Shown: in pieces, positions 6,105-26,094 of the stretch
Position numbering within the stretch: position 1 is the stretch's first letter
Layout of the letters: each line of letters begins with the position of its first letter
From: Candidatus Saccharimonadota bacterium
GTDB taxonomy: Bacteria > Patescibacteriota > Saccharimonadia > Saccharimonadales > Saccharimonadaceae
Direction: 5' to 3'
Length of the DNA: 32,000 bases
NCBI RefSeq assembly: GCF_025273655.1
Contig: NZ_CP045921.1
Location: 660,001 to 692,000 of the forward strand
The notes under the pieces: generated by a model
Seen by the model: the letters and a program-made list of their open reading frames with translations, nothing else
The model's database searches: none
Told to the model about the DNA's origin: nothing
Made by a program: the position numbers and the translations under genes

Positions 6105-6121
6105 TAGAGAAAAAGTAGCGG

Positions 6122-10576: not shown

Positions 10577-10577
10577 G

Positions 10578-11435
10578 TTATTCTCCTGCCTTTATCTTGC
10601 CGTCGAGCGTACGGAGTTTTTTGAGCGCTTCTTTGGCTTGTTCATGATTTGGTGGTGCACCGTGCCAGTGGTAATCATACTCCATGAAGTCAACGCCCTT
10701 ACCCGGAATAGTATGGGCGATAATTACACTTGGTTTGTTAGTGATAGCGCGCGCCATACTTGCCGCGTCGATGATGCTTTCAATGTTGTGCCCGTCGATT
10801 TCCTGCACGTGCCAGCCGAAACTTTCCCATTTGCCACGGAGATCCTCAAGCGGCATCACATCCTCGGTACTGCCATCGATCTGGATGTTGTTACGATCCA
10901 CGAAGCCGATCAGCTGACTAAGCTTATACTTGCCAGCAAACATCGCCGCCTCCCAGATATTACCCTCGTTGAGCTCGCCGTCGCCCATGATAGTGTACAC
11001 GAAACGATGCGGCTGCTTGTCCATATACTGCAATGCATACGCCACGCCAGACGCCTGCGACAAACCACTACCGAGTGGACCGGACGTATTCTCGAGACCC
11101 GGCAGCTTAGTCCGCTCTGGGTGCCCTTGCAAGCGAGAACCAAGTTTGCGCAGTGTCTTCAGCTCCGCTTTGTTGAAATACCCGGCCTCAGCCATAGCCG
11201 CATATTGCACCGGCACCGTATGACCATTACTGAGGAAGAAATAGTCACGCTCCTCCCAATCGGGGTGCTTCGGGTCTATATTCATGATATCGAAATACAG
11301 TGCTGTCACGATATCGGCCATGCCAAGCGGACCCGCGCTATGCCCACTACCCGCTGCCTCGAGCATAGAGATAATATCTTTACGAATTGTATTTGCTTTG
11401 GCATCGAGTTGCGCCAATGTGTAATGTTGCGTCAC
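10578..11435 (-). CDS. tkt: Transketolase, N-terminal (TPP-binding) subunit
   Basis: 285 aa. Carries SGH.G..L...D....LY, GHP, and GDGE..EG..WEA TPP-binding motifs. Confidence 0.9.
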   Translation of the reverse strand: MTQHYTLAQLDAKANTIRKDIISMLEAAGSGHSAGPLGMADIVTALYFDIMNIDPKHPDWEERDYFFLSNGHTVPVQYAAMAEAGYFNKAELKTLRKLGSRLQGHPERTKLPGLENTSGPLGSGLSQASGVAYALQYMDKQPHRFVYTIMGDGELNEGNIWEAAMFAGKYKLSQLIGFVDRNNIQIDGSTEDVMPLEDLRGKWESFGWHVQEIDGHNIESIIDAASMARAITNKPSVIIAHTIPGKGVDFMEYDYHWHGAPPNHEQAKEALKKLRTLDGKIKAGE

Positions 11436-12083
11436 TTAGAGCACTCCTTGTTTGTTGATTTCATCGACAAGCTGCTGATACATGGTCGCAGGATCAGTGG
11501 CCATCTGGATAGCACTCCCGACATTTAGCACGTTCACACCGCCCTGTGTCAAAGTATAGGCATTATCGACATTCACACCCCCGTCCCAGCCAATCTCCGC
11601 CTCGGGATTAATCTGTTTAATCAGACGAACTTTCTCCAGCTGCATGAGGTTTGCCGTGCCGCCATATTTACCTAGATCGCCAGTAAAAACCATAACATGC
11701 TCTGCCTGCTGAATAATCTGCTCTACTGAAGCGGGAACTGTTGATCTCAACACAGCGACACCAGCCTTTATATTGTACTGTTTAAGAGTAGCGAGTACCG
11801 AAGGTAGCTGTTCTGGATCGGCCTCGGCATGAAAGATGACCATACTGGGCTTAAGCTGCACGAGCGTTTGTAGATGTTCAGCAGGCCGCGCGACCATAGC
11901 ATGCACATCCACTTCCCAGCCTTCTGGCCACCAAATCTCATTTGATGCAATCGTAAATGAAGGTGCAAACTCACCGTCACTTATGTCGACATGAATACGC
12001 TGCGCAAATGGCTGTATTTTGTCAATGATCTGCTTATACTGTTCGGCATTTTCTGCTAGTACTGCCGGCGCAATCACACTCAT
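11436..12083 (-). CDS. rpe: Ribulose-phosphate 3-epimerase family protein
   Basis: IAPAVL.....Y, then HVDISDGEFAP.F, then the later HAE, GWDGG and GSAI blocks fit the Rpe TIM barrel. Start placed at ATG 12083, with GAGGTG 7 nt upstream, rather than the track start 12098. Confidence 0.8.
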   Translation of the reverse strand: MSVIAPAVLAENAEQYKQIIDKIQPFAQRIHVDISDGEFAPSFTIASNEIWWPEGWEVDVHAMVARPAEHLQTLVQLKPSMVIFHAEADPEQLPSVLATLKQYNIKAGVAVLRSTVPASVEQIIQQAEHVMVFTGDLGKYGGTANLMQLEKVRLIKQINPEAEIGWDGGVNVDNAYTLTQGGVNVLNVGSAIQMATDPATMYQQLVDEINKQGVL

Positions 12084-12087
12084 ATCT

Positions 12088-12540
12088 CTACACCTCATCT
12101 ATCTGCGCATTGCGCCGTTTATATCTAGGGGCTGCTGCAAACGGTGTATCCAGCCATGTATCAATAATCGCCTTCCACTCTGGTTCTTCCTTCTCAAGTA
12201 CACGTGACGGCAAACATAGCACGTTGCTGTCGTTGTCGTTGCGGGTCATTTTGGCCTCGTAGTCATCCCAGATCACACTTGCACGAATACCTCGAAAACG
12301 ATTCGCTGCCATAGCCATACCTTGGCCGCCGCCACAGAGCAAGATAGCGCGCGGATCGTTGGCGTCGTCTTCTCCCAGCACCTTTAGTGCTGCTAACTGG
12401 GCAAACTGTGGAAAATCGTCTTCCGGATCGAGCTCTTTGTCTCCGACATCTTCGACATCGTAGCCACGCTTGGCAAGATACGCAAATACTTTTTCTTTCA
12501 TGGCGAAGCCATTATGATCAGAGCCCAGGAAAATCTTCAT
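12088..12540 (-). CDS. rpiB: Ribose-5-phosphate isomerase B (RpiB/LacAB family)
   Basis: MKIFLGSDHNGF..K......L...GY.V.D.G ... LLCGGGQGMAMAANR..GIRA is the RpiB signature. Start placed at ATG 12540, 6 nt after a TATACT box, not the track start 12579. Confidence 0.87.
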   Translation of the reverse strand: MKIFLGSDHNGFAMKEKVFAYLAKRGYDVEDVGDKELDPEDDFPQFAQLAALKVLGEDDANDPRAILLCGGGQGMAMAANRFRGIRASVIWDDYEAKMTRNDNDSNVLCLPSRVLEKEEPEWKAIIDTWLDTPFAAAPRYKRRNAQIDEV

Positions 12541-12546
12541 GTCATA

Positions 12547-12575
12547 AGTATAAGCATAATCACTTCTCAAGGCAA
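12547..12575 (-). promoter_or_regulatory. Promoter TTGCCT-17-TATACT of the rpiB-rpe-tkt-fba block (leaderless rpiB)
   Basis: The minus strand reads TTGCCTtgagaagtgattatgctTATACTtatgacATG. Confidence 0.5.
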
Positions 12576-12666
12576 GCAACCCGAAATCCGTGAGATGCTA
12601 TACCAGTAGGCTCTCAAACTATACTTCCGCGTTTTTGTTTGATAAACATACCATTGACGCTCCTCG

Positions 12667-12695
12667 TTGACGACCTGGGCTCACCATCTTATACT
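12667..12695 (+). promoter_or_regulatory. Orphan near-consensus sigma-70 promoter TTGACG-17-TATACT
   Basis: TTGACG at 12667-12672, a 17-nt spacer, then TATACT at 12690-12695. It points into a 400-nt region with no annotated long gene. A second TTGACG lies at 12654-12659. Confidence 0.5.
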
Positions 12696-12725
12696 ACTGA
12701 TACGCCCACTCGAAAGGACAGTAAC

Positions 12726-12848
12726 GTGCAAAAACTAGTCGCCAGACTGATCAAGTGGCTTGAAAAGTCGACCGATCACACGCGCACACCCCCGCGTAGG
12801 CGGATTCGGAACTGCGATTACCATCGAACCCCTACTTGCGACTGCTGA
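12726..12848 (+). CDS. Candidate small protein (40 aa), amphipathic N-terminus plus C-terminal CxxH-x4-CxC
   Basis: GTG 12726 is preceded by GAAAGGA 7 nt upstream and about 24 nt downstream of the predicted TSS. It encodes VQKLVARLIKWLEKSTDHTRTPPRRRIRNCDYHRTPTCDC. This is the in-frame 3' part of track ORF 12639-12848, whose 5' part lies upstream of the promoter. Confidence 0.3.
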   Translation: MQKLVARLIKWLEKSTDHTRTPPRRRIRNCDYHRTPTCDC

Positions 12849-12864
12849 AACTCCCCGGCGAACC

Positions 12865-12900
12865 CCACCTGCGCAGGCTCATTCGAACTTGCGTAGGTGG
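12865..12900 (+). other. Strong hairpin: 11-bp stem with one G-U that pairs only on the + strand, 14-nt loop
   Basis: CCACCTGCGCA (12865-12875) pairs with TGCGTAGGTGG (12890-12900). The loop-plus-stem core gcgcaggctcattcgaacttgcg resembles gcgtaggcggattcggaactgcg at 12794-12816 (17 of 23 by my count). Confidence 0.45.
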
Positions 12901-12912
12901 ATCACCCTAGCT

Positions 12913-12948
12913 AAATCTTATAAAATACACCCGCGAAGTTGCGGGTGT
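12913..12948 (-). terminator. Rho-independent terminator of gap (possibly bidirectional)
   Basis: ACACCCGC-gaagtt-GCGGGTGT (12927-12948) is followed on the minus strand by ATTTTATAAGATTT. On the + strand the 3' flank is T-poor. Confidence 0.65.
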
Positions 12949-12980
12949 ATTGATAGGATAATGTGCGTATAATATGCGTC

Positions 12981-13997
12981 CTATTTTTCGATAGCTTTCG
13001 CCACATCAGCAACTAGCTCTACCAAGCGGTTGCTATAACCCCATTCGTTATCGTACCAGACAGCGATTTTGATCAGATTGCCACCGACTACCTTGGTAAG
13101 AAGTAGGTCGACAGTACCAGAGTGGCTGTTACCGATATAATCGCGGCTTACCAGTGGCTCTTCGCTCACCGCCAAGATACCCTGGTAGTATGGCTCAGCA
13201 GCAGCTTTTTTGAACACGGCATTGATCTCGTCTACAGTCACATCGCGGCTCAGTAGTGCCGTAACATCACTGATCGATACAACTGGTGTTGGTACACGGA
13301 TAGACAGACCATCGAACTTGCCTTCTAGTTGCGGCAGTGTTTTCGTCACGGCGATTGCAGCACCAGTTGTCGTTGGTACGATATTTTCGGCGCCGTTGCG
13401 ACCTTCACGCAAGTCTTTCTTTGGTGCATCCTGAATCGCTTGACTAGCCGTATAACTATGCACGGTCGTGAGAAGTGATTTCTCTACACCAAACTCCGCG
13501 TCCAGTACCGCCATCACCGCCGCCAGGCTGTTTGTAGTACAGCTCGCGTTGCTAATCACCTCGGTCGAGTGAGGAATCTTGTCATCATTTGCACCGAGTA
13601 CGATCGTATCGACGCCGTCGGATTTGGTAGGACCACTAATCACGACGCGCTTGGCACCAGCTTGCACGTGCTTGCTTGCGCCTTCTTTGTCGGTGAAGAA
13701 ACCAGTTGATTCGATGACGAGTTCTACACCAAGTGTACCCCATGGCAAAGCCGCTGGATCGCGTTCTGCTAGCACTTTGACATGCGTACCGTCCACGATA
13801 ATACCACTGTCGTCGTACCCTACTTCGTGATGATACGTGCCATAATTGCTATCATTTTTGAGCAAATACGCCAATGTTTTCGTATCCGTCAGATCGTTGA
13901 TTGCGACGATTTCAAGATCTTTGCGCTCAAACGCAATCTTAAACGCGTTACGTCCAATACGTCCGAAGCCATTGATGGCTATTTTGGTTTGACTCAT
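12981..13997 (-). CDS. gap: Glyceraldehyde-3-phosphate dehydrogenase
   Basis: 338 aa. INGFGRIGR N-terminus, active-site SNASCTTN and WYDNEWGYS near the C-terminus. Confidence 0.96.
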   Translation of the reverse strand: MSQTKIAINGFGRIGRNAFKIAFERKDLEIVAINDLTDTKTLAYLLKNDSNYGTYHHEVGYDDSGIIVDGTHVKVLAERDPAALPWGTLGVELVIESTGFFTDKEGASKHVQAGAKRVVISGPTKSDGVDTIVLGANDDKIPHSTEVISNASCTTNSLAAVMAVLDAEFGVEKSLLTTVHSYTASQAIQDAPKKDLREGRNGAENIVPTTTGAAIAVTKTLPQLEGKFDGLSIRVPTPVVSISDVTALLSRDVTVDEINAVFKKAAAEPYYQGILAVSEEPLVSRDYIGNSHSGTVDLLLTKVVGGNLIKIAVWYDNEWGYSNRLVELVADVAKAIEK

Positions 13998-14089
13998 GTC
14001 TGTATATGCCCCCTCTTATATAAGCATTAGTACTTCTGGCTGTATTATATGTCACTCTCTAGTGTCTATGCAACCATTTCCTCCACTAG

Positions 14090-14098
14090 TGTTATACT
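14090..14098 (+). promoter_or_regulatory. Extended -10 TGtTATACT, 9 nt before the rel ATG
   Basis: Read directly: agTGtTATACTagaagtatcATG. No SD. Confidence 0.5.
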
Positions 14099-14107
14099 AG
14101 AAGTATC

Positions 14108-15649
14108 ATGAAGAAGCGTGAAGTTCTCGAATATGCCGCTCATTTCTACGACGATGAGCAGATGCTTGAGCTGGAACACGCTATCGACTATGCAACCACT
14201 TGCCATGCCGGACAAAAACGTAAAAGTGGCGAACCCTATATCACTCACCCTCTCGCCGTCGCTTATAATCTCATCGACTGGGGCATGGACATCGACACGG
14301 TACTCGCCGGCGTACTGCACGACACTGTCGAAGATACAGACGCAACGCTCGAAGTAGTCGAAACTATGTTTGGGCGCGACGTGGCATTTCTAGTTGACGG
14401 CGTCACCAAGGTATCCCAGGCACGTGCAGGCATGCGCGATCTTGGCAGCTATTTACCGCAGACGCGCGACAATCTTTCCAAACTCCTCATCGCAGTCGGC
14501 CAAGACGTGCGCGTCATCATCATCAAACTCGCCGATCGCCTGCACAATATGTCGACACTGCAGCATATGCCCGTAGACAAGCAGCAGAAGATCGGCCGCG
14601 AAACTATAGAGGTCTTCGCCCCCATGGCAGACCGCCTGGGTATGGGCCGCGTGCGTATGGAGATGGAAGAGTTGGCATTTAGCTACCTCGATCCACACGA
14701 GTTCAAGCATCTTCAGGGACTCATGCGCAAGCGCCTCGGACGCAGTACGCGCAAACTCGGTCTCGTCCGCACCGAGGTAGAGCACCGTTTGGCTCAGGAT
14801 AAATTCGAGTTCGAGATCAACGGACGTGTCAAAAGCATCTATAGCCTGCACAAAAAGCTCAAGAAAGTTGACGGCAATATCGACGATATCTACGATCTCA
14901 TGGCGCTGCGTGTCATCGTCCAATCGAAAGAAGACTGCTACCGCGTCCTCGGTATCTTGCACGGTATGTACCAGCCCATGATCGCCCGCATCAAAGATTA
15001 CATCGCGGTGCCAAAACCAAACGGCTACCAAAGCCTCCACACTACCGTGATCACACCGAGCAAACAAATCGTCGAGTTTCAGATTCGCACACACGAAATG
15101 CACGAATACGCCGAACGCGGACTTGCCGCCAGTTTCCACTACCACGAGCAGAAATCAACCAAAGACTATACCAAGAAAAAGCGTGGCAATGGCGGCCTCC
15201 CAGCCGAACTGCAATGGATTACGCAGATGCAAGAAGTAGCTGCGCGCCTGCGCGACGGCGAAGACATTAGCGAAGACCAGCTAGCGATCGACCTATTCGG
15301 TAACCGCATCTTCGTCTACTCGCCAAAAGGAGACATTTACAATCTACCCGAAGGCGCCTACCCGCTCGATTTTGCCTACCTAGTGCATAGTGACATTGGT
15401 AAACATGCCTATAGCTTCAAGGTCAACGGCAATATCCACGCGTTCGACAAGCCGCTAGGCAACGGCGACGTCGTAGAGGTCGTCACACGCAAACTGCCAC
15501 AGGCAAAAAAAGCTTGGCTCGATCTCGTCATGACCACCCATGCCAAAAGCAAACTCCGCATGCAGCTCAAACAGCTCGGCTTGATCGAAGGTATCTCGCA
15601 CGCCGCCGCTATCATCCGCGACAAAGCCTCCCGCAAAAGCACGAAGTAA
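14108..15649 (+). CDS. rel: Bifunctional (p)ppGpp synthetase/hydrolase, short form (HD + synthetase + TGS only)
   Basis: 513 aa. HD hydrolase motifs (ITHPLAVA, HDTVEDT). Synthetase motifs (GRVKSIYSLHKKL, YDLMALRVIV, NGYQSLHTTV, EFQIRTHEMH). A TGS-like segment (IFVYSPKGDIYNLPEGAYPLDFAY..H..IG). The protein ends about 40 aa later. Confidence 0.9.
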   Translation: MKKREVLEYAAHFYDDEQMLELEHAIDYATTCHAGQKRKSGEPYITHPLAVAYNLIDWGMDIDTVLAGVLHDTVEDTDATLEVVETMFGRDVAFLVDGVTKVSQARAGMRDLGSYLPQTRDNLSKLLIAVGQDVRVIIIKLADRLHNMSTLQHMPVDKQQKIGRETIEVFAPMADRLGMGRVRMEMEELAFSYLDPHEFKHLQGLMRKRLGRSTRKLGLVRTEVEHRLAQDKFEFEINGRVKSIYSLHKKLKKVDGNIDDIYDLMALRVIVQSKEDCYRVLGILHGMYQPMIARIKDYIAVPKPNGYQSLHTTVITPSKQIVEFQIRTHEMHEYAERGLAASFHYHEQKSTKDYTKKKRGNGGLPAELQWITQMQEVAARLRDGEDISEDQLAIDLFGNRIFVYSPKGDIYNLPEGAYPLDFAYLVHSDIGKHAYSFKVNGNIHAFDKPLGNGDVVEVVTRKLPQAKKAWLDLVMTTHAKSKLRMQLKQLGLIEGISHAAAIIRDKASRKSTK

Positions 15650-15693
15650 CAATGTGACTTGTGTCATTGAATAGCATACATGGTGTTGCATAG

Positions 15694-15722
15694 TTGATTA
15701 TATAACAATTATGTGATATAAT
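15694..15722 (+). promoter_or_regulatory. Promoter TTGATT-17-TATAAT (with TGa extension), 6 nt before ATG 15729 (leaderless)
   Basis: TTGATT at 15694-15699 and TGaTATAAT at 15714-15722, then ataatt, then ATG. Confidence 0.55.
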
Positions 15723-15728
15723 ATAATT

Positions 15729-16121
15729 ATGACGAACCTCGAATCGCGGGTCTCTATCTCACTTCCAAATCGCCTGGCCGACACAGAGCTCTATGATATC
15801 ACTAGCGCTCATGGCAGTATTGCTGCAATTTACAGATCAACTGGTGGATTTTATCAGATTGCAGATTTTGAAGTCCATGCGGATTCACGAGGCCTAGGGC
15901 ACGGCAAAGAATTGCTCCATAGTGCAGCACTTCATGCCAGAGAGCTGGGCGCGCGTACTGTATATGCCGCCATCATCTCACGAGAATGCTATGAGGTGAT
16001 GAAGCGCGAATTTGGCGAAGAATCGCTAGAAGTATTGGAGATGGGCGACCCTACCCCTGACGGTCAAGACCAAAACAAAGACTCGCCAACTGCAGCGTTT
16101 TTGTTTCATCATACGAAGTAG
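15729..16121 (+). CDS. Small GNAT-family N-acetyltransferase (130 aa)
   Basis: ADFEVHADSRGLGHGKELLHSAALHARELGARTVY fits the GNAT motif A (R/Q-x-x-G-x-G/A followed by a helix). The target is unknown. Confidence 0.65.
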   Translation: MTNLESRVSISLPNRLADTELYDITSAHGSIAAIYRSTGGFYQIADFEVHADSRGLGHGKELLHSAALHARELGARTVYAAIISRECYEVMKREFGEESLEVLEMGDPTPDGQDQNKDSPTAAFLFHHTK

Positions 16122-16124
16122 GTG

Positions 16125-16211
16125 GCCCGTAAACGCAGCCAGACTATTGGTTACGTGACAATTATGAACCTATCTCTTTCTTTATTTTTGTGGTATAAAT
16201 AGTTTACGGGC
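16125..16211. repeat. 10-bp perfect inverted repeat GCCCGTAAAC / GTTTACGGGC bracketing promoter copy 1
   Basis: 16125-16134 and 16202-16211 are exact reverse complements. The right arm overlaps the start of the conserved leader. Confidence 0.7.
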
Positions 16212-16224
16212 AGCAATCGCTGTC
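16191..16224 (+). promoter_or_regulatory. Promoter/leader copy 1: TGgTATAAA, 8 nt, then GGGCAGCAATCGCTGTC
   Basis: Same architecture and an identical 15-mer as at 17132-17165. The inverted repeat is GGCAGC-aatc-GCTGTC. Confidence 0.6.
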
Positions 16225-16256
16225 TCGTTCCATTTTGCACACGGAAGAGGTGTCGT

Positions 16257-16637
16257 ATGACATCGCCCCGCAAACAACGGCCGAGCAAATACTACTTGGT
16301 GTCGTATCCAGATCCCGCCGCACGCACGCTTCGTATGAAAATTCGGAACGATGTGATGACGGCCGCAGAAGCTGGCAACACTACCGAGCAGGGCAAGATC
16401 TGCGCACGCTACAAGCATCGGCTAGGGTTACGGATCTACATCGGCTGGACTCGGCTCCATGCCAATATGCGCATCGACCCGAATCAGTCGCCACCGCCTA
16501 AAAAGGCCGCAAGTACAAAGCCCGAGCACTACGGCTGCACGTGCGAACGTGACCCCGAGTGTGCCTCTTGCGATCAGGGTTGGCACAAGAGCTGTCACTA
16601 CGGCTGCAAGTACGGCCGGGTTGTACCTCGGTCTTAG
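16257..16637 (+). CDS. Cys-rich protein A (126 aa), unknown family
   Basis: SD GGAAGAGGTG lies 5 nt upstream of the ATG. The C-terminal array YGCTCERDPECASCDQGWHKSCHYGCKYG (16530-16616) is shared with the next ORF, with synonymous DNA differences. Confidence 0.65.
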   Translation: MTSPRKQRPSKYYLVSYPDPAARTLRMKIRNDVMTAAEAGNTTEQGKICARYKHRLGLRIYIGWTRLHANMRIDPNQSPPPKKAASTKPEHYGCTCERDPECASCDQGWHKSCHYGCKYGRVVPRS

Positions 16638-16694
16638 ACGCACCCTTCACCCGGTTGAAGTTTCTACTCGGGAACACCCAGAAGAAGGGCGCCC

Positions 16695-17066
16695 ATGAGA
16701 CCACTGCGCCGCAAGCGATGGCAGATGTTCAACATCTACTACCCTGGATGGATATGGTGTCGCGTTCGCCTCGACCCAGATGAGTTCGAAGCTGCCGACA
16801 CGAACGATGGCGACGACGAAGATGTCGCCAGAGCACGACGCCACATCGGACACATCTACAAAGGTGCGACCGGTATCGATCGAGGCGTTTCGCTCGTGTG
16901 GACGGACTTCGTCTTTCGCCAAGCGGGATCGATCGAGCCATCGTGGCCAGAGCTATATGGTTGCACTTGTACGAGCTTCTGCACACCTTGCGACGTCGGC
17001 TGGCATCTAGAATGCGAGTTCTGTCGCAAATACTACGGCACACCAATCAACTGGATCGAGCCGTAG
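16695..17066 (+). CDS. Cys-rich protein B (123 aa), paralogue of A
   Basis: The upstream sequence GAAGAAGGG is a plausible SD. The C-terminal array is YGCTCTSFCTPCDVGWHLECEFCRKYYG (16956-17039). Confidence 0.65.
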   Translation: MRPLRRKRWQMFNIYYPGWIWCRVRLDPDEFEAADTNDGDDEDVARARRHIGHIYKGATGIDRGVSLVWTDFVFRQAGSIEPSWPELYGCTCTSFCTPCDVGWHLECEFCRKYYGTPINWIEP

Positions 17067-17069
17067 CCC

Positions 17070-17120
17070 CGCCCCTACCCCGCCGTTTACCGAAAACGCC
17101 GAGGAGGGGCGTTTTCATTT
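17070..17120 (+). terminator. GC-rich hairpin plus T-tract after protein B
   Basis: CGCCCCT (17070-17076) or CGCC (17097-17100) can pair with AGGGGCG/GGCG (17105-17111). This is followed by TTTTCATTT. Confidence 0.5.
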
Positions 17121-17131
17121 ATATAATTTTA

Positions 17132-17165
17132 TGTTATAATATAGATATGGGCAGCAATCGCTGCC
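17132..17165 (+). promoter_or_regulatory. Promoter/leader copy 2: TGtTATAAT, 8 nt, then GGGCAGCAATCGCTGCC
   Basis: Consensus extended -10. The perfect inverted repeat GGCAGC-aatc-GCTGCC sits at the predicted transcript start. Confidence 0.6.
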
Positions 17166-17192
17166 TTGATTCGTCCATCGAAAGGTACAGCT

Positions 17193-17588
17193 ATGCAGGA
17201 CAAGATAAGGGTGCTCGTGAGCGATATCGAGGATCTGCTGAGGGTCCTACCACGAGATAGCCATCTCTATGGCAAACTGGATGTGATTCGCGTCAGGCTC
17301 GATGATCTCAGGTTTGAGTTTCCTGATATGCAAGACTGCAAGCTCACGTTGACCAGCGTGGATCTGCCAGATGATCTGCTCGAGTTTCGGACCGTACTAC
17401 CGCAGTGGTTCGTGGACCTTGTCGTTTCTGGCCGACAACTCCCCGTCAGTGAACGCACCGGGCATCAGAATGCCGCCATCTCGCTGCTACCCGTCTGTGC
17501 GAACGAGGTACTCGAGCCCATCGTGGCTGAGTTGCCTCGTATCGGGGGCAACCATGTGTCGCTGCGAGTCGTAGTCGCCGGCGAGTAA
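17193..17588 (+). CDS. Acidic hypothetical protein C (131 aa)
   Basis: ATG 17193 has GAAAGG 7 nt upstream, which I prefer over the TTG at 17166 in the track. It has its own promoter and terminator. No family recognised. Confidence 0.55.
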   Translation: MQDKIRVLVSDIEDLLRVLPRDSHLYGKLDVIRVRLDDLRFEFPDMQDCKLTLTSVDLPDDLLEFRTVLPQWFVDLVVSGRQLPVSERTGHQNAAISLLPVCANEVLEPIVAELPRIGGNHVSLRVVVAGE

Positions 17589-17604
17589 CGCCGCTGGACG
17601 ATAA

Positions 17605-17643
17605 GGGTCGCGCCATTCACTTGGCGCGGCCCTGTTCAATTTT
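17605..17643 (+). terminator. 11-bp hairpin (one G-U) plus T-rich tail after protein C
   Basis: GGGTCGCGCCA-ttcact-TGGCGCGGCCC (17605-17632), followed by tgttcaatttt. Confidence 0.55.
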
Positions 17644-17657
17644 GACCATCAAATGCA

Positions 17658-17672
17658 TTTTGCTTTTTGCAG
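17658..17672. repeat. 15-mer TTTTGCTTTTTGCAG, copy 1
   Basis: Identical to 20226-20240. Both copies lie between a + strand terminator hairpin and the stop of a minus-strand island gene. Confidence 0.8.
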
Positions 17673-17727
17673 ATTACAGAAACTAAAACTCTCTAGAATT
17701 GAACCCTGAGTCCTTGCCTGTTATTTA

Positions 17728-19251
17728 CTATACTTCAGATTCCAGAATTGAGCGTGGGATATAAAGTCGGTCATTTGAGAATTGGATTGCTCCAAATTCT
17801 TGTTTCGATGCGGCGAGTAACGTCATGACTCGGTCAGACATTGTGTCAATCAGCACATTCCCTTCGCCAGTTTTTGTATGCTTGAGGCTTCGTGCGCCAA
17901 GATCCCTGGCATACTTCTTAGGAAGCGCCATGACCTCTCGCCAGTCGAGACCTTCGGATACATCTTGCCGAAATACATACAGAGCATTTGGTCCTGCGAT
18001 AGGGCTTTCTGCGATAGCATGCTCCGCAACTACGTTGTTTTCAGTATCTTTTTCTTGCAGAATCAATAACAAGTACTGGTCAGCTTCTTGTCTGCCGTCC
18101 TCACTGATTATCTTGCGTCCAGAAAGTGAACCCTTGGCGTAGTAGCAATTCTCGCTTCCCCACATCTCACGCACGTTATCCAGTATCTTCAGTCGTTCAA
18201 GTTCGATAGTGGGCCGCATATTCTTTGTTGCCGCGTTTCCTACGATTTCGCGTGCGTATCGCTCCAACTCTCCCGCGGGCAGCACTTCCCAGTTCAGTTC
18301 AGCGGCCGGTTCAAATGAGTCATGTCCTGGAATTAGCATCACTCTGTCCGGAGTAATAGTAAGTTCTTCTAGTACACGATTTTGCACTATCATATCTTCG
18401 ATATCTACATTCGCTAGACTTTTTATCAATTCAAAATATTTTTCACGAGTTTTAGATATGTCAATATCCTGCTGGAGTCTCCCTGAGGAATTTCTCACAA
18501 GAAGTCTTGCTGCAGCTGTATTTATATAGTCATCCAAGCGGCCGCCCGCAACCCGATTCATGCTAGATAGCTTCTTGCCGCTGGGGGCAGTGTAAGATAT
18601 TTGCTTTTCATATTTCCCGAGTAGTTCTTCGGATAGCTCGCCGTCACGGTTGCGGACATACTCCAGCAGAGAGTCGTGCACGGTCTTGAGAGAATCTTTA
18701 TTCTCTCCATGCTCGCCTAGGAGCATAAAGATTGCAAACATTCGCATATCAAGAGAAGCAGAATCATACGTGCGTCCATCTAGACCCTCGTACAATGGCA
18801 GGTTGTTGCATGTACCTATGAAGTTTTGTGCAGCCACATCGGCCAAATAGTCATAATCCCAGTCTTCCGGATGGGCAAAAAACTCATCACGCGATTCAAT
18901 ACCCATTCGGTCTGCAGCCTCCGCCAGGTAGCCAGCAAATTCGTGTGTTGCGTTAATAGTAGATCCAACCCTTTTTTGCTGCAAATACTGCCAGGCAAGT
19001 TTGTCCTGGGGCGTGTTCAAAGGATCAATCCGTGCGTTATGAAGCTTCATGCCCATAACTACTTGATCATCTGCATGACCAACGATATTATACGCGTCTC
19101 CGTCGTCTTCTCTGCCAATCTCAAACATGCGACTATAGATAGGGTTATCTAAAACGTGCTGAAGCTTTAGTGAAAGATCAGCCGGACTTAGTTTCTCTAG
19201 ACCCGGCTCGGTCTCTGATAGTTTTTGCATTCTCTCGTCGAATGTCGTCAT
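17728..19251 (-). CDS. Large ORFan protein (507 aa), AT-richer than its neighbours
   Basis: Long uninterrupted ORF. A consensus extended -10 TGCTATAAT lies 7 nt upstream of the ATG. No TM segments and no family motifs that I can assign. Confidence 0.8.
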   Translation of the reverse strand: MTTFDERMQKLSETEPGLEKLSPADLSLKLQHVLDNPIYSRMFEIGREDDGDAYNIVGHADDQVVMGMKLHNARIDPLNTPQDKLAWQYLQQKRVGSTINATHEFAGYLAEAADRMGIESRDEFFAHPEDWDYDYLADVAAQNFIGTCNNLPLYEGLDGRTYDSASLDMRMFAIFMLLGEHGENKDSLKTVHDSLLEYVRNRDGELSEELLGKYEKQISYTAPSGKKLSSMNRVAGGRLDDYINTAAARLLVRNSSGRLQQDIDISKTREKYFELIKSLANVDIEDMIVQNRVLEELTITPDRVMLIPGHDSFEPAAELNWEVLPAGELERYAREIVGNAATKNMRPTIELERLKILDNVREMWGSENCYYAKGSLSGRKIISEDGRQEADQYLLLILQEKDTENNVVAEHAIAESPIAGPNALYVFRQDVSEGLDWREVMALPKKYARDLGARSLKHTKTGEGNVLIDTMSDRVMTLLAASKQEFGAIQFSNDRLYIPRSILESEV

Positions 19252-19258
19252 ATTTATT

Positions 19259-19267
19259 ATTATAGCA
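19259..19267 (-). promoter_or_regulatory. Extended -10 TGCTATAAT, 7 nt before the ATG of the 507-aa gene (leaderless)
   Basis: The minus strand reads atTGCTATAATaataaatATG. Confidence 0.6.
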
Positions 19268-19350
19268 TAAATTTATAATAAATACAAATATCCGATTTTA
19301 TACTACTCATTCCAAATTTCACACATATCTTTTCTGTGTATAACAATTAT

Positions 19351-19379
19351 TTGTAATAATTACAAAGTAATGTTAAAAT
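19351..19379 (+). promoter_or_regulatory. Promoter TTGTAA-17-TAAAAT (TGt-extended); the -35 lies inside the perfect palindrome TTGTAATAATTACAA
   Basis: Palindrome at 19351-19365. Its other half provides TTGTAA-17-TATACA on the minus strand (box at 19337-19342). Confidence 0.5.
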
Positions 19380-19407
19380 ATACATGTTCTTTTCCGAAAG
19401 GATCAAG

Positions 19408-20112
19408 ATGTTCATTGTAAGTGTACGTAGTTTTGTGATGGATGCAGTGTCACTTTTGGCCTGTGTTCTACTGGGTGTTTTCGCGTTCATGAGTCTGCGC
19501 GACGGAGTGTCTGGCTACGACATCATCCTCATCACTATCACCGTTCTCGTGACGGGACTACTAGTCATGGTGGCTTCGGGTCACCTGGTGAGCCTGGTGC
19601 AGCATCACCGGAGTATGAGGGGTCGTAGCCTGGAACTGCAGGAGTTCTTGCGAACCAAGCATCGACTCGTCAATCTCCTACATAGGGTGCCTGCCACACC
19701 GACGGTTGGTGGAGATATGTACACCATTGGCCTGTCCAAAGACCTGGGTGAGCGGCTCTTGATCGTGCGCAAGTCCTACGGCTTGGAGTGCGTGATAGTG
19801 GATCGTATCGGTACGAAATATGTGAATGACCAAGAAGTAGAGGTCACCCTTTTGAAGGGCATCACTATCCCCTACTCGGACCGCCTGCCGGTACTGGTAC
19901 ATGCATTCGGCAGTGAGCGCATCTGCGGAGAAGTGACCGGTGGAGATGAGGTGCAGTACGCGCAGCACATTGGTGATCAGCTGCGGGAAATAATCGACCG
20001 GCACTTTGGCGCCGGTCGACCGACGCCGATACTGGCAAACAATTTCAACACTGCCAACGTCGACGACTTGCAAGAACTGCTCGATTTCATGCCCGAATCA
20101 ATGCGAGACTGA
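19408..20112 (+). CDS. Membrane-anchored ORFan D (234 aa; two N-terminal TM helices plus a soluble C-terminal domain)
   Basis: Start placed at ATG 19408, with AAAGGA upstream. The track ATG 19384 is only 4 nt after the -10. TM helices are AVSLLACVLLGVFAFMSL and IILITITVLVTGLLVMVASG. Confidence 0.6.
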   Translation: MFIVSVRSFVMDAVSLLACVLLGVFAFMSLRDGVSGYDIILITITVLVTGLLVMVASGHLVSLVQHHRSMRGRSLELQEFLRTKHRLVNLLHRVPATPTVGGDMYTIGLSKDLGERLLIVRKSYGLECVIVDRIGTKYVNDQEVEVTLLKGITIPYSDRLPVLVHAFGSERICGEVTGGDEVQYAQHIGDQLREIIDRHFGAGRPTPILANNFNTANVDDLQELLDFMPESMRD

Positions 20113-20189
20113 CTCAACTCTCGCTCAACTCATAGAAAAGAACTCGCTGACCGAGAACGGTCCGTCTATTGGTACGACGCAAAACTACT

Positions 20190-20240
20190 CGCCCGCGCTG
20201 GACACTTCGGTGTTTGGCGTGGGCGTTTTGCTTTTTGCAG
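20190..20240 (+). terminator. Compound hairpin plus TTTTGCTTTTT after ORF D; contains 15-mer copy 2
   Basis: CGCCCGCG (20190-20197) pairs with CGTGGGCG (20218-20225), with an inner ACAC-ttcg-GTGT hairpin. The T-tract starts at 20226. Confidence 0.6.
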
Positions 20241-20292
20241 GGCTGTTCTATCTACTGAAGGACGTACTTTCTATTCCGTTACGCTTGTTGAC

Positions 20293-20757
20293 CTAAGATC
20301 CGGAAACCATGTAAACAAAAGAAATAATTGCGAGGACCAAGGATAGTGTGGCACAGTGATTCAAAAAACTTATCGAAATATTAGGGAGTTTCACTCTGCA
20401 AAATCCATGCACAGCAATTGCCACCCTTCTGCCACGATCACTTGAGTGGTCTCGAATAATGCGCTGCCACCAATTTAAATCACCTTTCGCCATAAACTTT
20501 TCAAACCATTTCATGGTAAGCTCACTTACTAAGTAGCCTAGAATAATCAGCAACATGGATATTAAAACCAAAATAACCGTAACCTTGTACGATGAATAGC
20601 CCCATAGAACTGGTGAACTTTCACTCCAAGTGTCATTTAGCCCCAGGGCAACAAGTAAACCCGCTGTAGCCACTGTCAACTTAGCCGTATCAAACTGCTT
20701 TTGTAAGTCCGCGCGACTATTCTGTATATCTTCAAGAAGGTTATCATCTGACTTCAC
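20293..20757 (-). CDS. Small multi-TM membrane protein (154 aa)
   Basis: GTG start with GGGAG 8 nt upstream and a GTGA overlap with the upstream stop. Hydrophobic segments are LTVATAGLLVALGL, VTVILVLISMLLIILGYLV and ATLSLVLAIISFVYMV. Confidence 0.6.
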   Translation of the reverse strand: MKSDDNLLEDIQNSRADLQKQFDTAKLTVATAGLLVALGLNDTWSESSPVLWGYSSYKVTVILVLISMLLIILGYLVSELTMKWFEKFMAKGDLNWWQRIIRDHSSDRGRRVAIAVHGFCRVKLPNISISFLNHCATLSLVLAIISFVYMVSGS

Positions 20758-20972
20758 TTCAAACTCTCCCTTTTATCTCTCCATTTACTCACCGGCGCTG
20801 CAAGCATTGATGCCTGAATATCATGAACCGCTGCACGTGTCATATAACCCATGAGTCCCCAAGCAGCTGCATATTCGCAGCTATTATTGTCGGCTTCGTA
20901 CGTCTCGCCCTGCAATTTGCTTGCAAACTCGGTCGCGCGGCCTTGGATTTCGTTCCAACTTAAATTCGTCAT
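20754..20972 (-). CDS. 72-aa protein whose N-terminus resembles the start of MmeI-family type IIL R-M enzymes
   Basis: It starts MTNLSWNEIQGRATEFASK. MmeI, as I recall it, starts MALSWNEIRRKAIEFSKRW. A host-style -10 (TGCGC-TACACT) lies 10 nt upstream of the ATG. It is coupled to the downstream membrane-protein gene. Confidence 0.45.
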   Translation of the reverse strand: MTNLSWNEIQGRATEFASKLQGETYEADNNSCEYAAAWGLMGYMTRAAVHDIQASMLAAPVSKWRDKRESLK

Positions 20973-20982
20973 GTGTGTCCGT

Positions 20983-20993
20983 AGTGTAGCGCA
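20983..20993 (-). promoter_or_regulatory. -10 element TGCGC-TACACT, 10 nt before ATG 20972
   Basis: The minus strand reads gtTGCGCTACACTacggacacacATG. This is the same TGCGCTACA core as the gatC promoter. Confidence 0.45.
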
Positions 20994-21013
20994 ACGAGAG
21001 GTGTTTTGCCAGG

Positions 21014-21424
21014 CTACAGATAGAAATCTATAGCCGTCCGCACGAGCACTTGAAACGGCGGCTCGAAGCCTCGTAGAGTATCGATCTGCACCCAGTCGTA
21101 GCCTTCGTGCTCGCCACTGAGCTGTATATACGGCCTGGGTGTCTCGAGCTTGAGCATATAGAGCACACGCGTCATCATGCCTTCGCCGGGCTCGTACTCG
21201 GCGTCAAACCCGATATGGATAGCGTCTTCTGTATTGAGTACAAGCCCTGTCTCTTCGGCAAGCTCACGATCGAGTGCTTCGAGATCTTGCTCGCCAGACT
21301 CTACCAGGCCGCCGGGCAGATCAAGCGCTCGCGGCTGGGTAGGATGTGAGCCGCTTCGGCGCAGCACCAAAAACTCTCCTTGGCCATTGCGAATTAGTAG
21401 CTTGACGGAGCGGCGATCTTGCAT
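21014..21424 (-). CDS. NUDIX hydrolase
   Basis: Nudix box GGLVESGEQDLEALDRELAEETGL (G-x5-E-x7-REUxEExGU). Confidence 0.85.
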   Translation of the reverse strand: MQDRRSVKLLIRNGQGEFLVLRRSGSHPTQPRALDLPGGLVESGEQDLEALDRELAEETGLVLNTEDAIHIGFDAEYEPGEGMMTRVLYMLKLETPRPYIQLSGEHEGYDWVQIDTLRGFEPPFQVLVRTAIDFYL

Positions 21425-21427
21425 CGT

Positions 21428-21958
21428 CTACTTGTTGTTCCAGCGCTCGATTGCTTCGTGTACAACTGCCTTTGCCTCGTCGATGTCACCAAATTTCTCG
21501 ACAACTGTCGTACCAGGTTTTTTGAGATCTTTGTAGTGATTGAAGTGAAATTCGATCTGCTTGATAAGCTGTGCAGGGAGATCTTCGAGAGTTTGAATCG
21601 CATTACCGGTATTGCGATCGTCGGCTGGTACGGCCACGATCTTGTCGTCTACCTCACTGTCGTCGCTAAATTTCATGACACCGATAATACGCGCTTCGAG
21701 GAAGATACCCGTAGGGAGAGGCTCATCTGTCACAAGCAATAAATCGAGTTCGTCGCCATCTTCGTCGAGTGTCTGCGGAATGAAACCGTAGTTGGTAGGT
21801 TTGGCAAAAATAGCTGGCTCGACACGGTCAAGTTGCATCACAGCAAGTTCGCGGTTCCACTCGATCTTGTGGCTGCTACCCTGCGGAATCTCTATGACGA
21901 CATTGACGATACCGTCATCTACTGCGCCTGGGGTAAGTACTTGGTTGAAATCTGCCAT
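21428..21958 (-). CDS. ppa: Inorganic pyrophosphatase, family I
   Basis: 176 aa. Carries VVIEIP.GS..K.E, YGFIP.T..EDGD.LD.L. and DDK..AV motifs. Confidence 0.93.
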   Translation of the reverse strand: MADFNQVLTPGAVDDGIVNVVIEIPQGSSHKIEWNRELAVMQLDRVEPAIFAKPTNYGFIPQTLDEDGDELDLLLVTDEPLPTGIFLEARIIGVMKFSDDSEVDDKIVAVPADDRNTGNAIQTLEDLPAQLIKQIEFHFNHYKDLKKPGTTVVEKFGDIDEAKAVVHEAIERWNNK

Positions 21959-22010
21959 ATCTGCTGCTCCTTTGATTTGTGCATAATTGGTGCTTTGTCT
22001 CTGTTACTAG

Positions 22011-22016
22011 TATACT
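22011..22016 (+). promoter_or_regulatory. -10 TATACT, 6 nt before ATG 22023 (leaderless)
   Basis: TTGGTG (21987-21992), 18 nt, TATACT, then atagat, then ATG. Confidence 0.45.
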
Positions 22017-22022
22017 ATAGAT

Positions 22023-22709
22023 ATGCTAGTAATCGGACACCGTGGCGCCAAAGGCAAAGGACTCGGAAATACTCTCGAAGCCATGCGCTATGCACTCGCC
22101 CAAGGTGCCGACGGCCTGGAGTTCGATGTGCGCCTGACACGGGACGGCGTGCCGGTGATTATCCACGACGACACGCTGCTACTGACGCGCGGCATAAATA
22201 GAAGTGTCCACACACTCACGCTCCGCGAGCTCAACGATCTCAGCAGCGACAAACCGGTGCCAACACTCACCCAGGTGCTCGACGAGTTTTGGGGCAACAC
22301 ATATCTCAATATCGAGCTCAAAGCCCGCGGAAGTGGGCGCGCAGTCGTGTCACTCCTAGTGTCTCGCTATATCACAAGTGACTACGACTGGAGCAACTGC
22401 CTCATCTCTTCGTTCAAAACAGCCGAACTACGAGCTGCGCGTTCACTTGCGCCGCATGCGCGCTTGGCGCTGTTACATGGTCAAAATCCTTTTACTTTTC
22501 TGATGTATCAGCATCGTCTACGGCTTGCCGGACTTGGGTTTCACCGCCTGCACGTCAGTCTGTTGGCACTCGCGATTGCCCGGCGCCTGGGGATCTTCAC
22601 CTATGCATATACCGTCAATCGCCCAGGTGGCGCCCAGCAGCTCCGCGAAAAACAACTCGACGCGGTAGTGACTGACTATCCGCGCCGAATTGTAGATGCG
22701 CTGTCGTAG
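22023..22709 (+). CDS. Glycerophosphodiester phosphodiesterase family protein
   Basis: IGHRGA.G....NTLEA...A...GADGLEFDV.LT.DGVPV..HDDTL is the GDPD N-terminal signature. Confidence 0.8.
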   Translation: MLVIGHRGAKGKGLGNTLEAMRYALAQGADGLEFDVRLTRDGVPVIIHDDTLLLTRGINRSVHTLTLRELNDLSSDKPVPTLTQVLDEFWGNTYLNIELKARGSGRAVVSLLVSRYITSDYDWSNCLISSFKTAELRAARSLAPHARLALLHGQNPFTFLMYQHRLRLAGLGFHRLHVSLLALAIARRLGIFTYAYTVNRPGGAQQLREKQLDAVVTDYPRRIVDALS

Positions 22710-23645
22710 CTAGTTACGCTCGAGCTCTTCGAGATATTCACGAATCGCAAGTGCTGCCGTGGCACCTTCGCCCACTGCGCTAGCAATCTGCATGGTTGCA
22801 CCGCTGCGCACATCGCCAGAGGCAAACACACCCGGTAGCGTCGTAGAGAGTTTGAGATCTGTTTTGATGAGTCCTACTTCGTCCAGCTCTACGCCCGAGT
22901 TTTCGAGAAACTGAGTATTTGGCTTGAGCCCGATGAAGACGAAGACACCGTCTGTATCATAGCTGACTTTCTGGCCATCTTTTGTCGCATCGACGCGGAT
23001 CACCTTAGCGTCCTCGGTCACGATTTCGTCTGGCACCACTCCGTAGTGGACACTAATTTTGCCTTCAGCTACAAACTTCTCTAGTTCGTGTTGCAATACC
23101 TCGCTGGCTTTGAGCGTACTGCGGACAAGCAAATCGATATGTGTCGTAAAACGTGTCAGGAAAATCGCCTCTTGCACAGCAGAATTACCGCCGCCCACCA
23201 CGACCAGGCGCTTTTCGCGGTAGAACGCACCGTCACAGGTAGCGCAGTAATGCACACCGCGACCATAGTATTCTGCTTCGCCCGGTATACCTAGCTTCTT
23301 GTAGTCGCTACCAGTCGCAATCAATACAGCCTTCGCTTGGACAGGCTTGCCATCAACTATGAGTTCGACTACGTCGCCGTCGCGGCGCAGCGCCGAAATA
23401 TCGCCGAAATCTATATGTGCACCGAAGCGCTCGGCCTGTGCCTGCAGCTGACTTGCAAGCTGCATCCCAGAAATACCTTCGGCAAATCCAGGGTAGTTAT
23501 CAACAAGATCTGTGATAGCCGCCAGGCCGCCAATCGTCGCCTTCTCATACAGTGTCGTGTCGATATCTTCGCGCGTAGTATATACCGCTGCAGCCAGTGC
23601 GCTCGGACCGGCGCCAATCATCACGACGTCTTTTACTTCACTCAC
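22710..23645 (-). CDS. trxB: Thioredoxin-disulfide reductase
   Basis: GAGPSAL FAD motif, redox-active CATCDG, GGGNSAVQEA NADPH motif, and GDV near the C-terminus. Confidence 0.94.
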   Translation of the reverse strand: MSEVKDVVMIGAGPSALAAAVYTTREDIDTTLYEKATIGGLAAITDLVDNYPGFAEGISGMQLASQLQAQAERFGAHIDFGDISALRRDGDVVELIVDGKPVQAKAVLIATGSDYKKLGIPGEAEYYGRGVHYCATCDGAFYREKRLVVVGGGNSAVQEAIFLTRFTTHIDLLVRSTLKASEVLQHELEKFVAEGKISVHYGVVPDEIVTEDAKVIRVDATKDGQKVSYDTDGVFVFIGLKPNTQFLENSGVELDEVGLIKTDLKLSTTLPGVFASGDVRSGATMQIASAVGEGATAALAIREYLEELERN

Positions 23646-23647
23646 GG

Positions 23648-24262
23648 CTACGCCTCGCTTGCCGGCGGAATAGCCATAATCACAAACTTCAGTGGTGCGT
23701 TGGCTTTGATATCTGCGCCTTGGTCTGAACTATACGCCATGTTGCCAGGAATAGTAACGACACGTACGCCGCCGATTTTCATACCTTGTACGCCCTTCGT
23801 CCAGCCCTCGATCAAGCCAGGGCCGCCTTCGAGTGGCGCTTTGAGTGCACCGTTTTCGATCGAACCGTCGAAGACTTTGCCCTCGCTGTTCCAGCCGATG
23901 TAGTACGCGCGGTACGCAGTGTCAGATTTGATTTCTGCGCCGTCACCCTGCTTAAGATCTTCCGTACCAAGGCTTTTCACCTTGCTTGCATCGTAGGCCT
24001 CTGGCAATGATTCGTATTGTTTAAACGTATCATAATACTGTGCCGACAACGTCTTGGCTTCTCCTTCAGACTTCTTCTGCTCTTCGGCCATTTGCTTCTG
24101 GTATTCTGCCAGTTGCTTGTTATATTCGTCTTGCTGTTTTTGCTGATCAGCCACGCTGTTTTGATTTGCCAAGATCATGATAAAAAACGAGCCAACCGTA
24201 CCTACAGTCATCACCACTGCAATGATAATAATACCGATACGCTGCGCCTTCGATGTCGCCAT
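23648..24262 (-). CDS. Membrane-anchored FKBP-type peptidyl-prolyl isomerase
   Basis: N-terminal TM helix, a coiled Q/K/E-rich linker, then Y.G....G.VFD.S and LIEGWTKGVQGMKIGGVRVVTIPGNMAYS. Confidence 0.8.
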   Translation of the reverse strand: MATSKAQRIGIIIIAVVMTVGTVGSFFIMILANQNSVADQQKQQDEYNKQLAEYQKQMAEEQKKSEGEAKTLSAQYYDTFKQYESLPEAYDASKVKSLGTEDLKQGDGAEIKSDTAYRAYYIGWNSEGKVFDGSIENGALKAPLEGGPGLIEGWTKGVQGMKIGGVRVVTIPGNMAYSSDQGADIKANAPLKFVIMAIPPASEA

Positions 24263-24286
24263 AGTCTCCCTCTCTGAATTTTTTGC

Positions 24287-24303: not shown

Positions 24304-24310
24304 AACACGC

Positions 24311-26092: not shown

Positions 26093-26094
26093 CG

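Follow-up and report, generated by a model that had tools for sequence, protein, structure and literature searches.

Two adjacent genes, A and B, in a 32,000-nucleotide stretch of a Candidatus Saccharimonadota genome (RefSeq assembly GCF_025273655.1, contig NZ_CP045921.1, positions 660,001 to 692,000 of the forward strand; this whole stretch is called the window below) encode members of a new and rare two-module protein family with seven invariant Cys/His residues. Judged from the sequences, these residues probably mark a mini-domain for metal binding that is itself new and belongs to a broad, already known class, the small domains that bind metal through Cys and His. The interpretation that we favour, with a probability of roughly 0.45, is that this is a new family of cytoplasmic regulator or adaptor proteins of about 120 residues carrying a mini-domain that probably binds two zinc ions, with A and B acting as a pair and their expression being controlled through the mRNA leader.

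Both open reading frames (ORFs) were confirmed at the coordinates and with the sequences given in an initial annotation of this DNA, which had described them as tandem paralogues. BLASTP bears this out, aligning A and B at 27% identity over 118 residues (E 6e-9), with the C-terminal array as the strongest block. A is laid out as a beta-hairpin, three helices resembling a Sel1 repeat, a Pro/Lys linker and a Cys6-His mini-domain, in which C94, C96, C102, C105, H110, C113 and C117 are the candidate ligands. In B, the helical domain contains an acidic insert of 6 residues, and the Cys6-His array is complete. Where A and B have the same residue in the array, their codons (tac/tat, ggc/ggt, acg/act, tgc/tgt, gat/gac, cac/cat) are set apart mainly by synonymous changes in the third base; that the differences are largely synonymous had been remarked earlier. 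When the pattern C.{1,2}C.{1,7}C..C[DNEQ].{2,4}H.{0,3}C.{2,6}C was run in six frames over 468 kb of DNA, all matches fell in genes of the A/B family. The basic N-termini pointed out for the two proteins turned out to be shared by the family (consensus M-x-S-K-P-R-E-x-Y). Over its full length, however, B is acidic, with an isoelectric point (pI) of 5.6 against 9.7 for A. Gene A also contains a 19-nt near-repeat (89% identical, 16527-16545 and 16596-16614) that encodes HYGC twice, as HYGCTC opening the array and as HYGCKY closing it; this repeat is found in A only and hints at a small internal duplication.

A HMMER profile search of 1.84 billion representative proteins retrieved 32 relatives at E<1e-3, 16 of them at E<1e-10, all 68-159 residues long. 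Since word-indexed homologue searches yielded few clusters (four for A, two for B and eight for the profile), the full family is visible only by such an exhaustive search. Three family loci were found on JGI metagenome contigs. In the source databases, the family proteins carry neither a name nor a Pfam domain. The Cys/His positions are conserved among the homologues: in an alignment of 33 members, six Cys are invariant (33/33), and at least 90% of the members retain His110 and Trp64; when the C-terminal domains are aligned separately, all seven ligands are invariant. The mini-domain spans about 35 residues with the spacing C-x-C-x(1-6)-C-x2-C-x4-H-x2-C-x(2-5)-C, and the array consensus reads x-Y-G-C-T-C-x(1-6)-C-x2-C-D-Q-G-x-H-x2-C-x-Y-x-C-x2-G. 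The Gly-Trp-His (GWH) triplet that the initial annotation had called invariant did not hold up across the family, where His alone is conserved; the Trp position is taken by S, Y, L, H, Q, E, R, D, N or F in relatives, and the Gly is common without being invariant.

The family proteins are built from two parts that are joined by a linker rich in Pro, Arg and Lys and that also exist independently. The Cys domain stands alone in L092 (53 aa), P0020 and P0034, and the N-terminal domain stands alone in P0027, P0029, P0032 and P0036, so the two domains are separable modules. Most members have a pI of 8-10, and the B lineage has a pI of 4.4-5.6; orthologues of B include P0005 (83% identity) and P0006 (77%). 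In a divergent paralogue, designated D-type (92 aa at locus L087 and 95 aa at L102), the second Cys of C-x-C is gone and a His-His doublet is present, giving five Cys and two His; as the second His, beside the conserved one, offsets the lost Cys, D keeps seven potential ligands. Several family ORFs seem to begin with a GTG right after AGGAGG, which would give proteins that begin with MVW (L005 5965-6003, L087 5692 and L090); the N-terminal consensus (M-T/S-S-K-P-R-E) and a normal Shine-Dalgarno spacing suggest that the true start lies 9 nt downstream. The database call of P0004 begins at an internal Met and is too short. The UvrB encoded in the window is 80-89% identical to UvrB from metagenome-assembled genomes of Candidatus Saccharibacteria (TM7). 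So far the family is tied to this group, the host taxon being established for the window and for the L087 lineage.

Because synonymous sites are saturated over the whole length of A versus B, we took the evidence on selection from orthologues, using the Nei-Gojobori method. The ratio of nonsynonymous to synonymous substitution rates (dN/dS) for A was 0.22 between the window and L001 (dS 1.29) and 0.17 between the window and L095 (dS 2.66). For B it was 0.20 against L087 (dS 0.70) and 0.17 against L102 (dS 0.71), and for D it was 0.29 between L087 and L102 (dS 0.61). Gene C, which lies downstream of B, gave 0.20 against L102 and 0.30 against L001 (dS 0.66 and 0.53, respectively). Housekeeping neighbours have ratios of 0.00-0.03, the cassette genes being about ten-fold less constrained. 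These data indicate that A, B, C and D are real proteins under purifying selection, and the protein-level selection in the + frame proposed earlier is confirmed by the orthologue ratios of about 0.2.

The array had been described as falling outside the named zinc-finger and Fe-S families, and we likewise matched it to no characterised domain in Pfam, NCBIfam, PDB or Foldseek searches. Neither A nor B has a significant match in Pfam, NCBIfam, PHROGs or PADLOC, and Pfam searches with each of the 33 members gave nothing above the curated cut-offs. The best sub-threshold Pfam matches were DUF6248 (0.011), zf-RING_10 (0.014), IBR (0.055) and zf-C2H2_jaz (0.16), the DUF6248 match involving one member and being limited to the Cys motif. 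Searches of PDB sequences with A and B returned nothing significant, and no relatives were detected in phage and plasmid records (tblastn) or in 2.9 million viral contigs. In the literature we found nothing on cysteine-rich zinc proteins of Saccharibacteria, on bacterial PHD-like domains or on DUF6248. With the 33-sequence alignment as input, AlphaFold2 modelled A with a mean predicted local distance difference test score (pLDDT) of 90.7 and a predicted TM-score (pTM) of 0.62. The predicted elements are strands at residues 10-15 and 25-30, helices at 31-38, 42-56 and 64-69, the linker, and a C-terminal domain that is largely irregular, has a short helix beginning at C-x2-C and reached a pLDDT of 85.9 when modelled alone. 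Foldseek found no neighbour for the full-length model (best E 0.9 in PDB and 0.24 in BFVD, TM-scores at most 0.31) or for the C-terminal model in PDB (best E 8). When the N-terminal profile was compared with PDB, only Sel1-repeat proteins were retrieved (4bwr at a whole-sequence E of 1.5e-5, 6ur7 at 6.3e-5, 8sxq and 6deh), and a Sel1-like signature, A..G...Q..I..QY...G......W, lies on the helix pair of the N-domain. This is a weak but consistent hint that the N-domain contains one Sel1-like helix pair.

A promoter, a Shine-Dalgarno sequence, a terminator-free spacer and a terminator after B together define A-B as one operon, the 57-nt spacer without a terminator arguing for co-transcription of the two genes (Table 1). 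At L001, the stretch after the A orthologue goes directly into the same terminator element. The window contains two copies of the sequence GGGCAGCAATCGCTG where 0.05 would be expected, and a 49-nt promoter-plus-hairpin module is duplicated (16177-16225 and 17118-17166, 73% identity), serving A and gene C. The TGnTATAAT promoter layout is also present upstream of family genes at the other loci examined. We compared the leaders of the window, L001, L005, L087, L090, L092, L093, L095-L098 and L100-L102. All 14 family leaders, and three gene-C leaders as well, share one layout: an extended -10 box, 5-9 nt, a hairpin whose stem has 5-9 bp and whose loop has 3-5 nt (one leader has 8), a further stretch of about 25-35 nt, GGAGG and the start codon. 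At L001, the leader hairpins lie at 5957-5974 and 6484-6501. The stems differ in sequence between loci, and their pairs comprise 96 Watson-Crick and 15 G.U pairs in the sense strand; the mean z-score of the first 32 nt of the leaders is -2.8. In most leaders, RNAfold predicts a second hairpin in which a CCU-rich stretch pairs with the Shine-Dalgarno sequence. No Rfam family matched the leader. The conserved layout may be a cis-regulatory or mRNA-stabilising RNA element.

Two other explanations of the leader palindrome were considered and rejected. The first saw a DNA operator in the palindrome that follows the -10 box; it was set aside since every mismatch in the stem, read in the sense orientation, is G.T, as would suit an RNA hairpin. 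The second, that a 5' hairpin is a general mRNA feature of this genome, disagrees with the leadered PfkB and GAPDH genes, which have no such hairpin, and with three neighbours that appear leaderless; in the latter (the GNAT gene, a 507-aa ORF and a 242-aa ORF), 4-7 nt separate the extended -10 promoter from the ATG.

Table 1. Features of the A-B-C region and adjacent promoters (window coordinates)
Feature	Position	Strand	Details
Leaderless-type promoter, GNAT gene	15714-15731	+	
A-B promoter region	16147..16200	+	extended -10 box TGgTATAAA at ~16189-16197
Stem-loop at 5' end of A-B transcript	16208..16225	+	GGGCAGC-AATC-GCTGTCT; near the predicted transcription start; -11.6 kcal/mol, z -2.9
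Remaining A leader	16226..16256	+	Shine-Dalgarno (GGAAGAGGTG) in predicted second hairpin (RNAfold)
ORF A	16257..16637	+	126 aa; end EHYGCTCERDPECASCDQGWHKSCHYGCKYG
Cys6-His array of A	16536..16607	+	CTCERDPECASCDQGWHKSCHYGC; regular-expression match; columns invariant in two family alignments
A-B spacer	16638..16694	+	57 nt; no terminator in scan
ORF B	16695..17066	+	123 aa; end ELYGCTCTSFCTPCDVGWHLECEFCRKYYG
Cys6-His array of B	16962..17024	+	CTCTSFCTPCDVGWHLECEFC; regular-expression match; family alignment
Intrinsic terminator ending A-B operon	17092..17116	+	9-bp stem, T-rich tail
Second promoter-plus-hairpin module, drives gene C	17118..17192	+	TGTTATAAT; hairpin 17149-17166
Gene C	17193..17588	+	131 aa, acidic; outside known families; also present at L001 and L102
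Leaderless-type promoter, 507-aa ORF	19267-19249	-	
Leaderless-type promoter, 242-aa ORF	19371-19386	+	

The two genes are part of a cassette whose composition varies between loci. Gene C, which has no match in Pfam, NCBIfam, PHROGs or PADLOC, is found downstream of Cys6-His genes elsewhere too (L001 6529-6924 and L102 3060-3455), and the cassette takes the forms A-B-C in the window, D-B-C at L102, D-B at L087 and A-C at L001. The acidic B directly follows a basic paralogue in all three independent contexts. Where that paralogue is D (L102 2273-2560 and L087 5692-5970, both on the + strand), its stop codon abuts the start codon of B. At L102, the gene caller had overlooked D in favour of an opposite-strand ORF (2252-2536). 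The window is part of a bacterial chromosome, and its housekeeping genes include those for UvrB, PheS/PheT, PfkB, GAPDH, class II aldolase, a RelA/SpoT homologue and a transketolase that is split.

L087 comes from a very close, syntenic relative whose flanks match the window DNA at 96-97.6% identity (window 10512-16112 and 20899-26561) and whose RelA, GAPDH and GDPD proteins are 100% identical to those of the window. Between the RelA/GNAT genes and a NUDIX gene lies a hypervariable island (window 16113-20898 versus L087 5590-6679). Within it, A is swapped for a D-type paralogue without DNA similarity, B shows 83% DNA identity, and about 3.8 kb of the window (17119-20898), comprising gene C, the 507-aa ORF, the 242-aa membrane ORF and one more ORF, is absent from L087. 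No att-like direct repeats were found at the island borders, and PHROGs and PADLOC searches with the neighbours of A and B gave nothing significant. For the window-only 507-aa ORF (17728-19251, - strand), searches of Pfam, NCBIfam, PHROGs, PADLOC and PDB sequences gave no match. The GNAT gene beside RelA/SpoT is intact in the window (15729-16121, + strand) and is split into two ORFs by a frameshift in L087 (5207-5598). Other family members are solitary, next to unrelated genes such as those for L33/YajQ, TerC/L31, MetK, a YgjP-like protein and an ABC transporter, and no partner gene is conserved across the solitary loci examined.

In the mechanism that we favour, the seven ligands would hold a compact two-metal centre, most probably with two Zn(II) ions, in which either one thiolate would bridge both ions or a three-ligand site would be completed by water or by a partner; with two zinc ions, the metals would be structural. 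The family protein would act as a small regulator or adaptor. Because the gene is otherwise solitary and lacks a conserved neighbour, a self-contained regulator or adaptor fits better than an enzyme subunit. More speculatively, the basic members (pI 8-10, A included) might bind nucleic acid or a partner protein, and the acidic B might pair with the basic paralogue upstream of it and modulate that paralogue; we propose this pairing because B is always encoded immediately downstream, in the same transcript. Expression would start from the strong extended -10 promoter, and the leader, with its 5'-terminal hairpin and the hairpin sequestering the Shine-Dalgarno sequence, would probably provide post-transcriptional control, a step that is likewise speculative.

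Several points weigh against this mechanism. Metal binding itself is something we infer from the sequence, which does not tell zinc from an Fe-S cluster or one metal from two, and seven ligands fall short of two ordinary four-coordinate sites. The argument for nucleic-acid binding consists of net charge and a basic linker, and AlphaFold models this linker at fair confidence and not as disordered; the argument for A-B pairing consists of gene order and opposite charge. As for the Sel1-like unit, no single repeat scores better than an independent E-value of 3.8, the whole-sequence E summing up to seven repeats, and no member among the 33 matches the Pfam Sel1 models at E<=1, nor is there a Foldseek match. 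In addition, hypervariability of this kind would be more usual for conflict genes than for housekeeping regulators: between the window and L087, B has a dS of 0.70 and a dN of 0.14, compared with a dS of 0.04-0.18 and a dN of about 0.002 for the flanks of the same genome pair.

The last point leads to the strongest alternative, that these are fast-evolving genes of conflict or host interaction (anti-phage, anti-defence, or effector/immunity functions of an epibiotic lifestyle) in which the metal domain only stabilises a small binding protein with a rapidly evolving target. This view, which is compatible with a zinc-bound domain, is possible though doubtful. It would account for the accelerated divergence of B, the replacement of A and the window-only 3.8 kb between nearly identical flanks, and for the shuffled cassettes. 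It is also in line with the surroundings of the L001 copy, which lies 3-6 kb from GIY-YIG, T5orf172, DUF6994, YgjP-like and type I HsdR genes, and of the L095 copy, which adjoins a YgjP-like gene. Furthermore, a peptide pattern for close relatives was found in none of 185,579 GTDB species representatives, which makes the genes look like strain-level accessories. On the other hand, there is no PADLOC or PHROG match and no relative among the viral, phage and plasmid sequences searched; several copies stand alone among housekeeping genes (L31, L33, MetK, TerC); and a whole-gene dN/dS of about 0.2 indicates purifying, not diversifying, selection.

An Fe-S cluster in place of zinc is unlikely. It could be a [2Fe-2S] cluster on three Cys and one His, as in CDGSH proteins, or a [4Fe-4S] cluster on four Cys, and the protein would serve as a small regulator that senses redox state, O2 or NO, much as WhiB-like proteins do. 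The CDGSH signature of the mitoNEET family, C-X-C-X2-(S/T)-X3-P-X-C-D-G-(S/A/T)-H, binds [2Fe-2S] in a small domain, and the C-x-C pair followed by C-D-(x)-G-x-H in the A/B family recalls it; in A, the spacing between the second Cys and the Cys that precedes Asp equals that in mitoNEET, eight residues. The family differs from CDGSH in having one extra residue between Cys and His (C-D-x-G-x-H) and three extra invariant Cys, and in lacking the conserved Pro and Ser/Thr. Its C-x-C to C-D spacing ranges from 4 to 9, and its seven invariant ligands are three more than a single cluster needs. Protein size and solitary genes resemble WhiB-like regulators, which are present in Actinobacteria, the known hosts of Saccharibacteria. 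The WhiB spacing (PF02467; C-x(14-22)-C-x2-C-x5-C, then G(V/I)WGG) is different, and no member matches Pfam zf-CDGSH (PF09360) or Whib at E<=1, so that neither the CDGSH domain nor the WhiB-like regulators were retained as an assignment.

A more elaborate arrangement is decidedly improbable. Here, the seven ligands would again hold two metals, but one site would be completed in trans, clamping the basic member to B or to another partner. The cassette and its leader would form a fast-diversifying regulatory or conflict module specific to Saccharibacteria, and the protein would bind the 5' hairpin of its own mRNA in autoregulation.

Metal buffering or storage, or a metallochaperone role in zinc economy akin to that of metallothionein, is very unlikely. 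The high Cys density would suit it, as would the position of two family genes near genes for L33 and L31, ribosomal proteins that are classic players in zinc-sparing responses. The L005 family gene (6001-6351) lies near L33 (4479-4688), and the L096 family gene (5001-5387) lies near L31 (5528-5848). This proximity may be due to chance or to a zinc-economy link; it concerns two of about 12 contexts and was noticed post hoc. In metallothioneins, invariant positions other than the ligands, of which the Gly preceding the first Cys is an example here, are not usual, nor is an aromatic-rich core. Bacterial metallothioneins of the SmtA/BmtA type (about 55 aa, 9 Cys and 2 His, Zn4) gave no Pfam or NCBIfam match, and in contrast to them, the A/B family has just seven ligands in about 120 residues together with a large, well-folded and conserved non-metal domain. 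Finally, although overlapping ORFs of 50-140 aa are numerous on both strands here, the reading of A and B as chance or shadow ORFs with a meaningless motif is excluded by homologues that exist only for the + frames and form 32 clusters with invariant ligands, by a dN/dS of about 0.2 at high dS, by a rightly placed promoter, Shine-Dalgarno sequence and terminator, and by a confident AlphaFold model.

Saccharibacteria and other Patescibacteria have tiny genomes with many unannotated genes and live attached to host bacteria; to our knowledge, almost nothing is known of their gene regulation or of their interactions with hosts and phages. The family offers a well-defined entry point, combining a confident fold without relatives, a strict seven-ligand site, basic/acidic pairs, a variable island and a leader RNA. 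Should the metal centre prove new, the known zinc or Fe-S mini-domains would gain a class. A cassette that acts as a regulator or conflict module would rank among the few lineage-specific systems of the phylum open to direct testing, since the proteins are small and easy to express. Lineage-restricted families without an assigned function are very common in these bacteria, and without a function this one would be a well-described orphan, though an unusually well defined one that is easy to test.

Among known systems, the PHD finger (Cys4-His-Cys3, PF00628) shows a local resemblance in sequence. PHD fingers are the only solved structures retrieved when the C-terminal profile is compared with PDB, none of them at a significant level (MTF2 2yt5 at E 0.33, KMT2D 9atn at 0.92, MLL3 2ysm at 1 and ATXR5 5vab at 1.4). 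The likeness is confined to C-x2-C-D-x-G-(W/Y)-H-x2-C, equivalent to PHD ligands 3 to 6, over which 12-14 residues align. A PHD finger binds two zinc ions through eight ligands in a cross-brace, with loops of at least 9 and at least 12 residues, whereas the A/B family has seven ligands and loops of 1-6 and 2-5 residues, and its proteins are bacterial, without a histone context. Given the different ligand number and loops, and no Pfam match at E<=1 for any of the 33 members, the PHD assignment was rejected. A PHD-like fold was also rejected, as Foldseek gave no PDB match at E<8 for the C-terminal model, a 41-residue query for which sensitivity is low. The motif recalls the retroviral-type CCHC knuckle (PF00098; C-x2-C-x4-H-x4-C) as well, but the family has C-x2-C-x4-H-x2-C and no Pfam match to it, and this assignment was likewise dropped. 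What weakly links the N-domain to the Sel1-like repeat (SLR, PF08238) is the pattern A-x2-G-x3-Q-x2-(I/L)-x3-Y-x3-G...W; Sel1-repeat proteins are protein-interaction scaffolds. The A/B family differs from SLR proteins in having one repeat-like unit and a beta-hairpin before it.

For the metal centre itself, a comparison can be made with the Gal4 Zn2Cys6 cluster and the Cys-rich region of HIV-1 Tat, both of which bind two zinc ions with six or seven ligands in 16-28 residues. The family is not a member of either. The fungal Zn2Cys6 cluster (PF00172; C-x2-C-x6-C-x(5-12)-C-x2-C-x(6-8)-C) was rejected for its different spacing and lack of a Pfam match, and the Tat region differs in spacing and shows no sequence or profile similarity to the A/B family. 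Gal4 uses bridging thiolates, and in Tat a three-ligand site is completed by a Cys of cyclin T1. The two clusters may thus offer a mechanistic precedent for the A/B family, both for two metals held by seven ligands and for a metal site that bridges two proteins.

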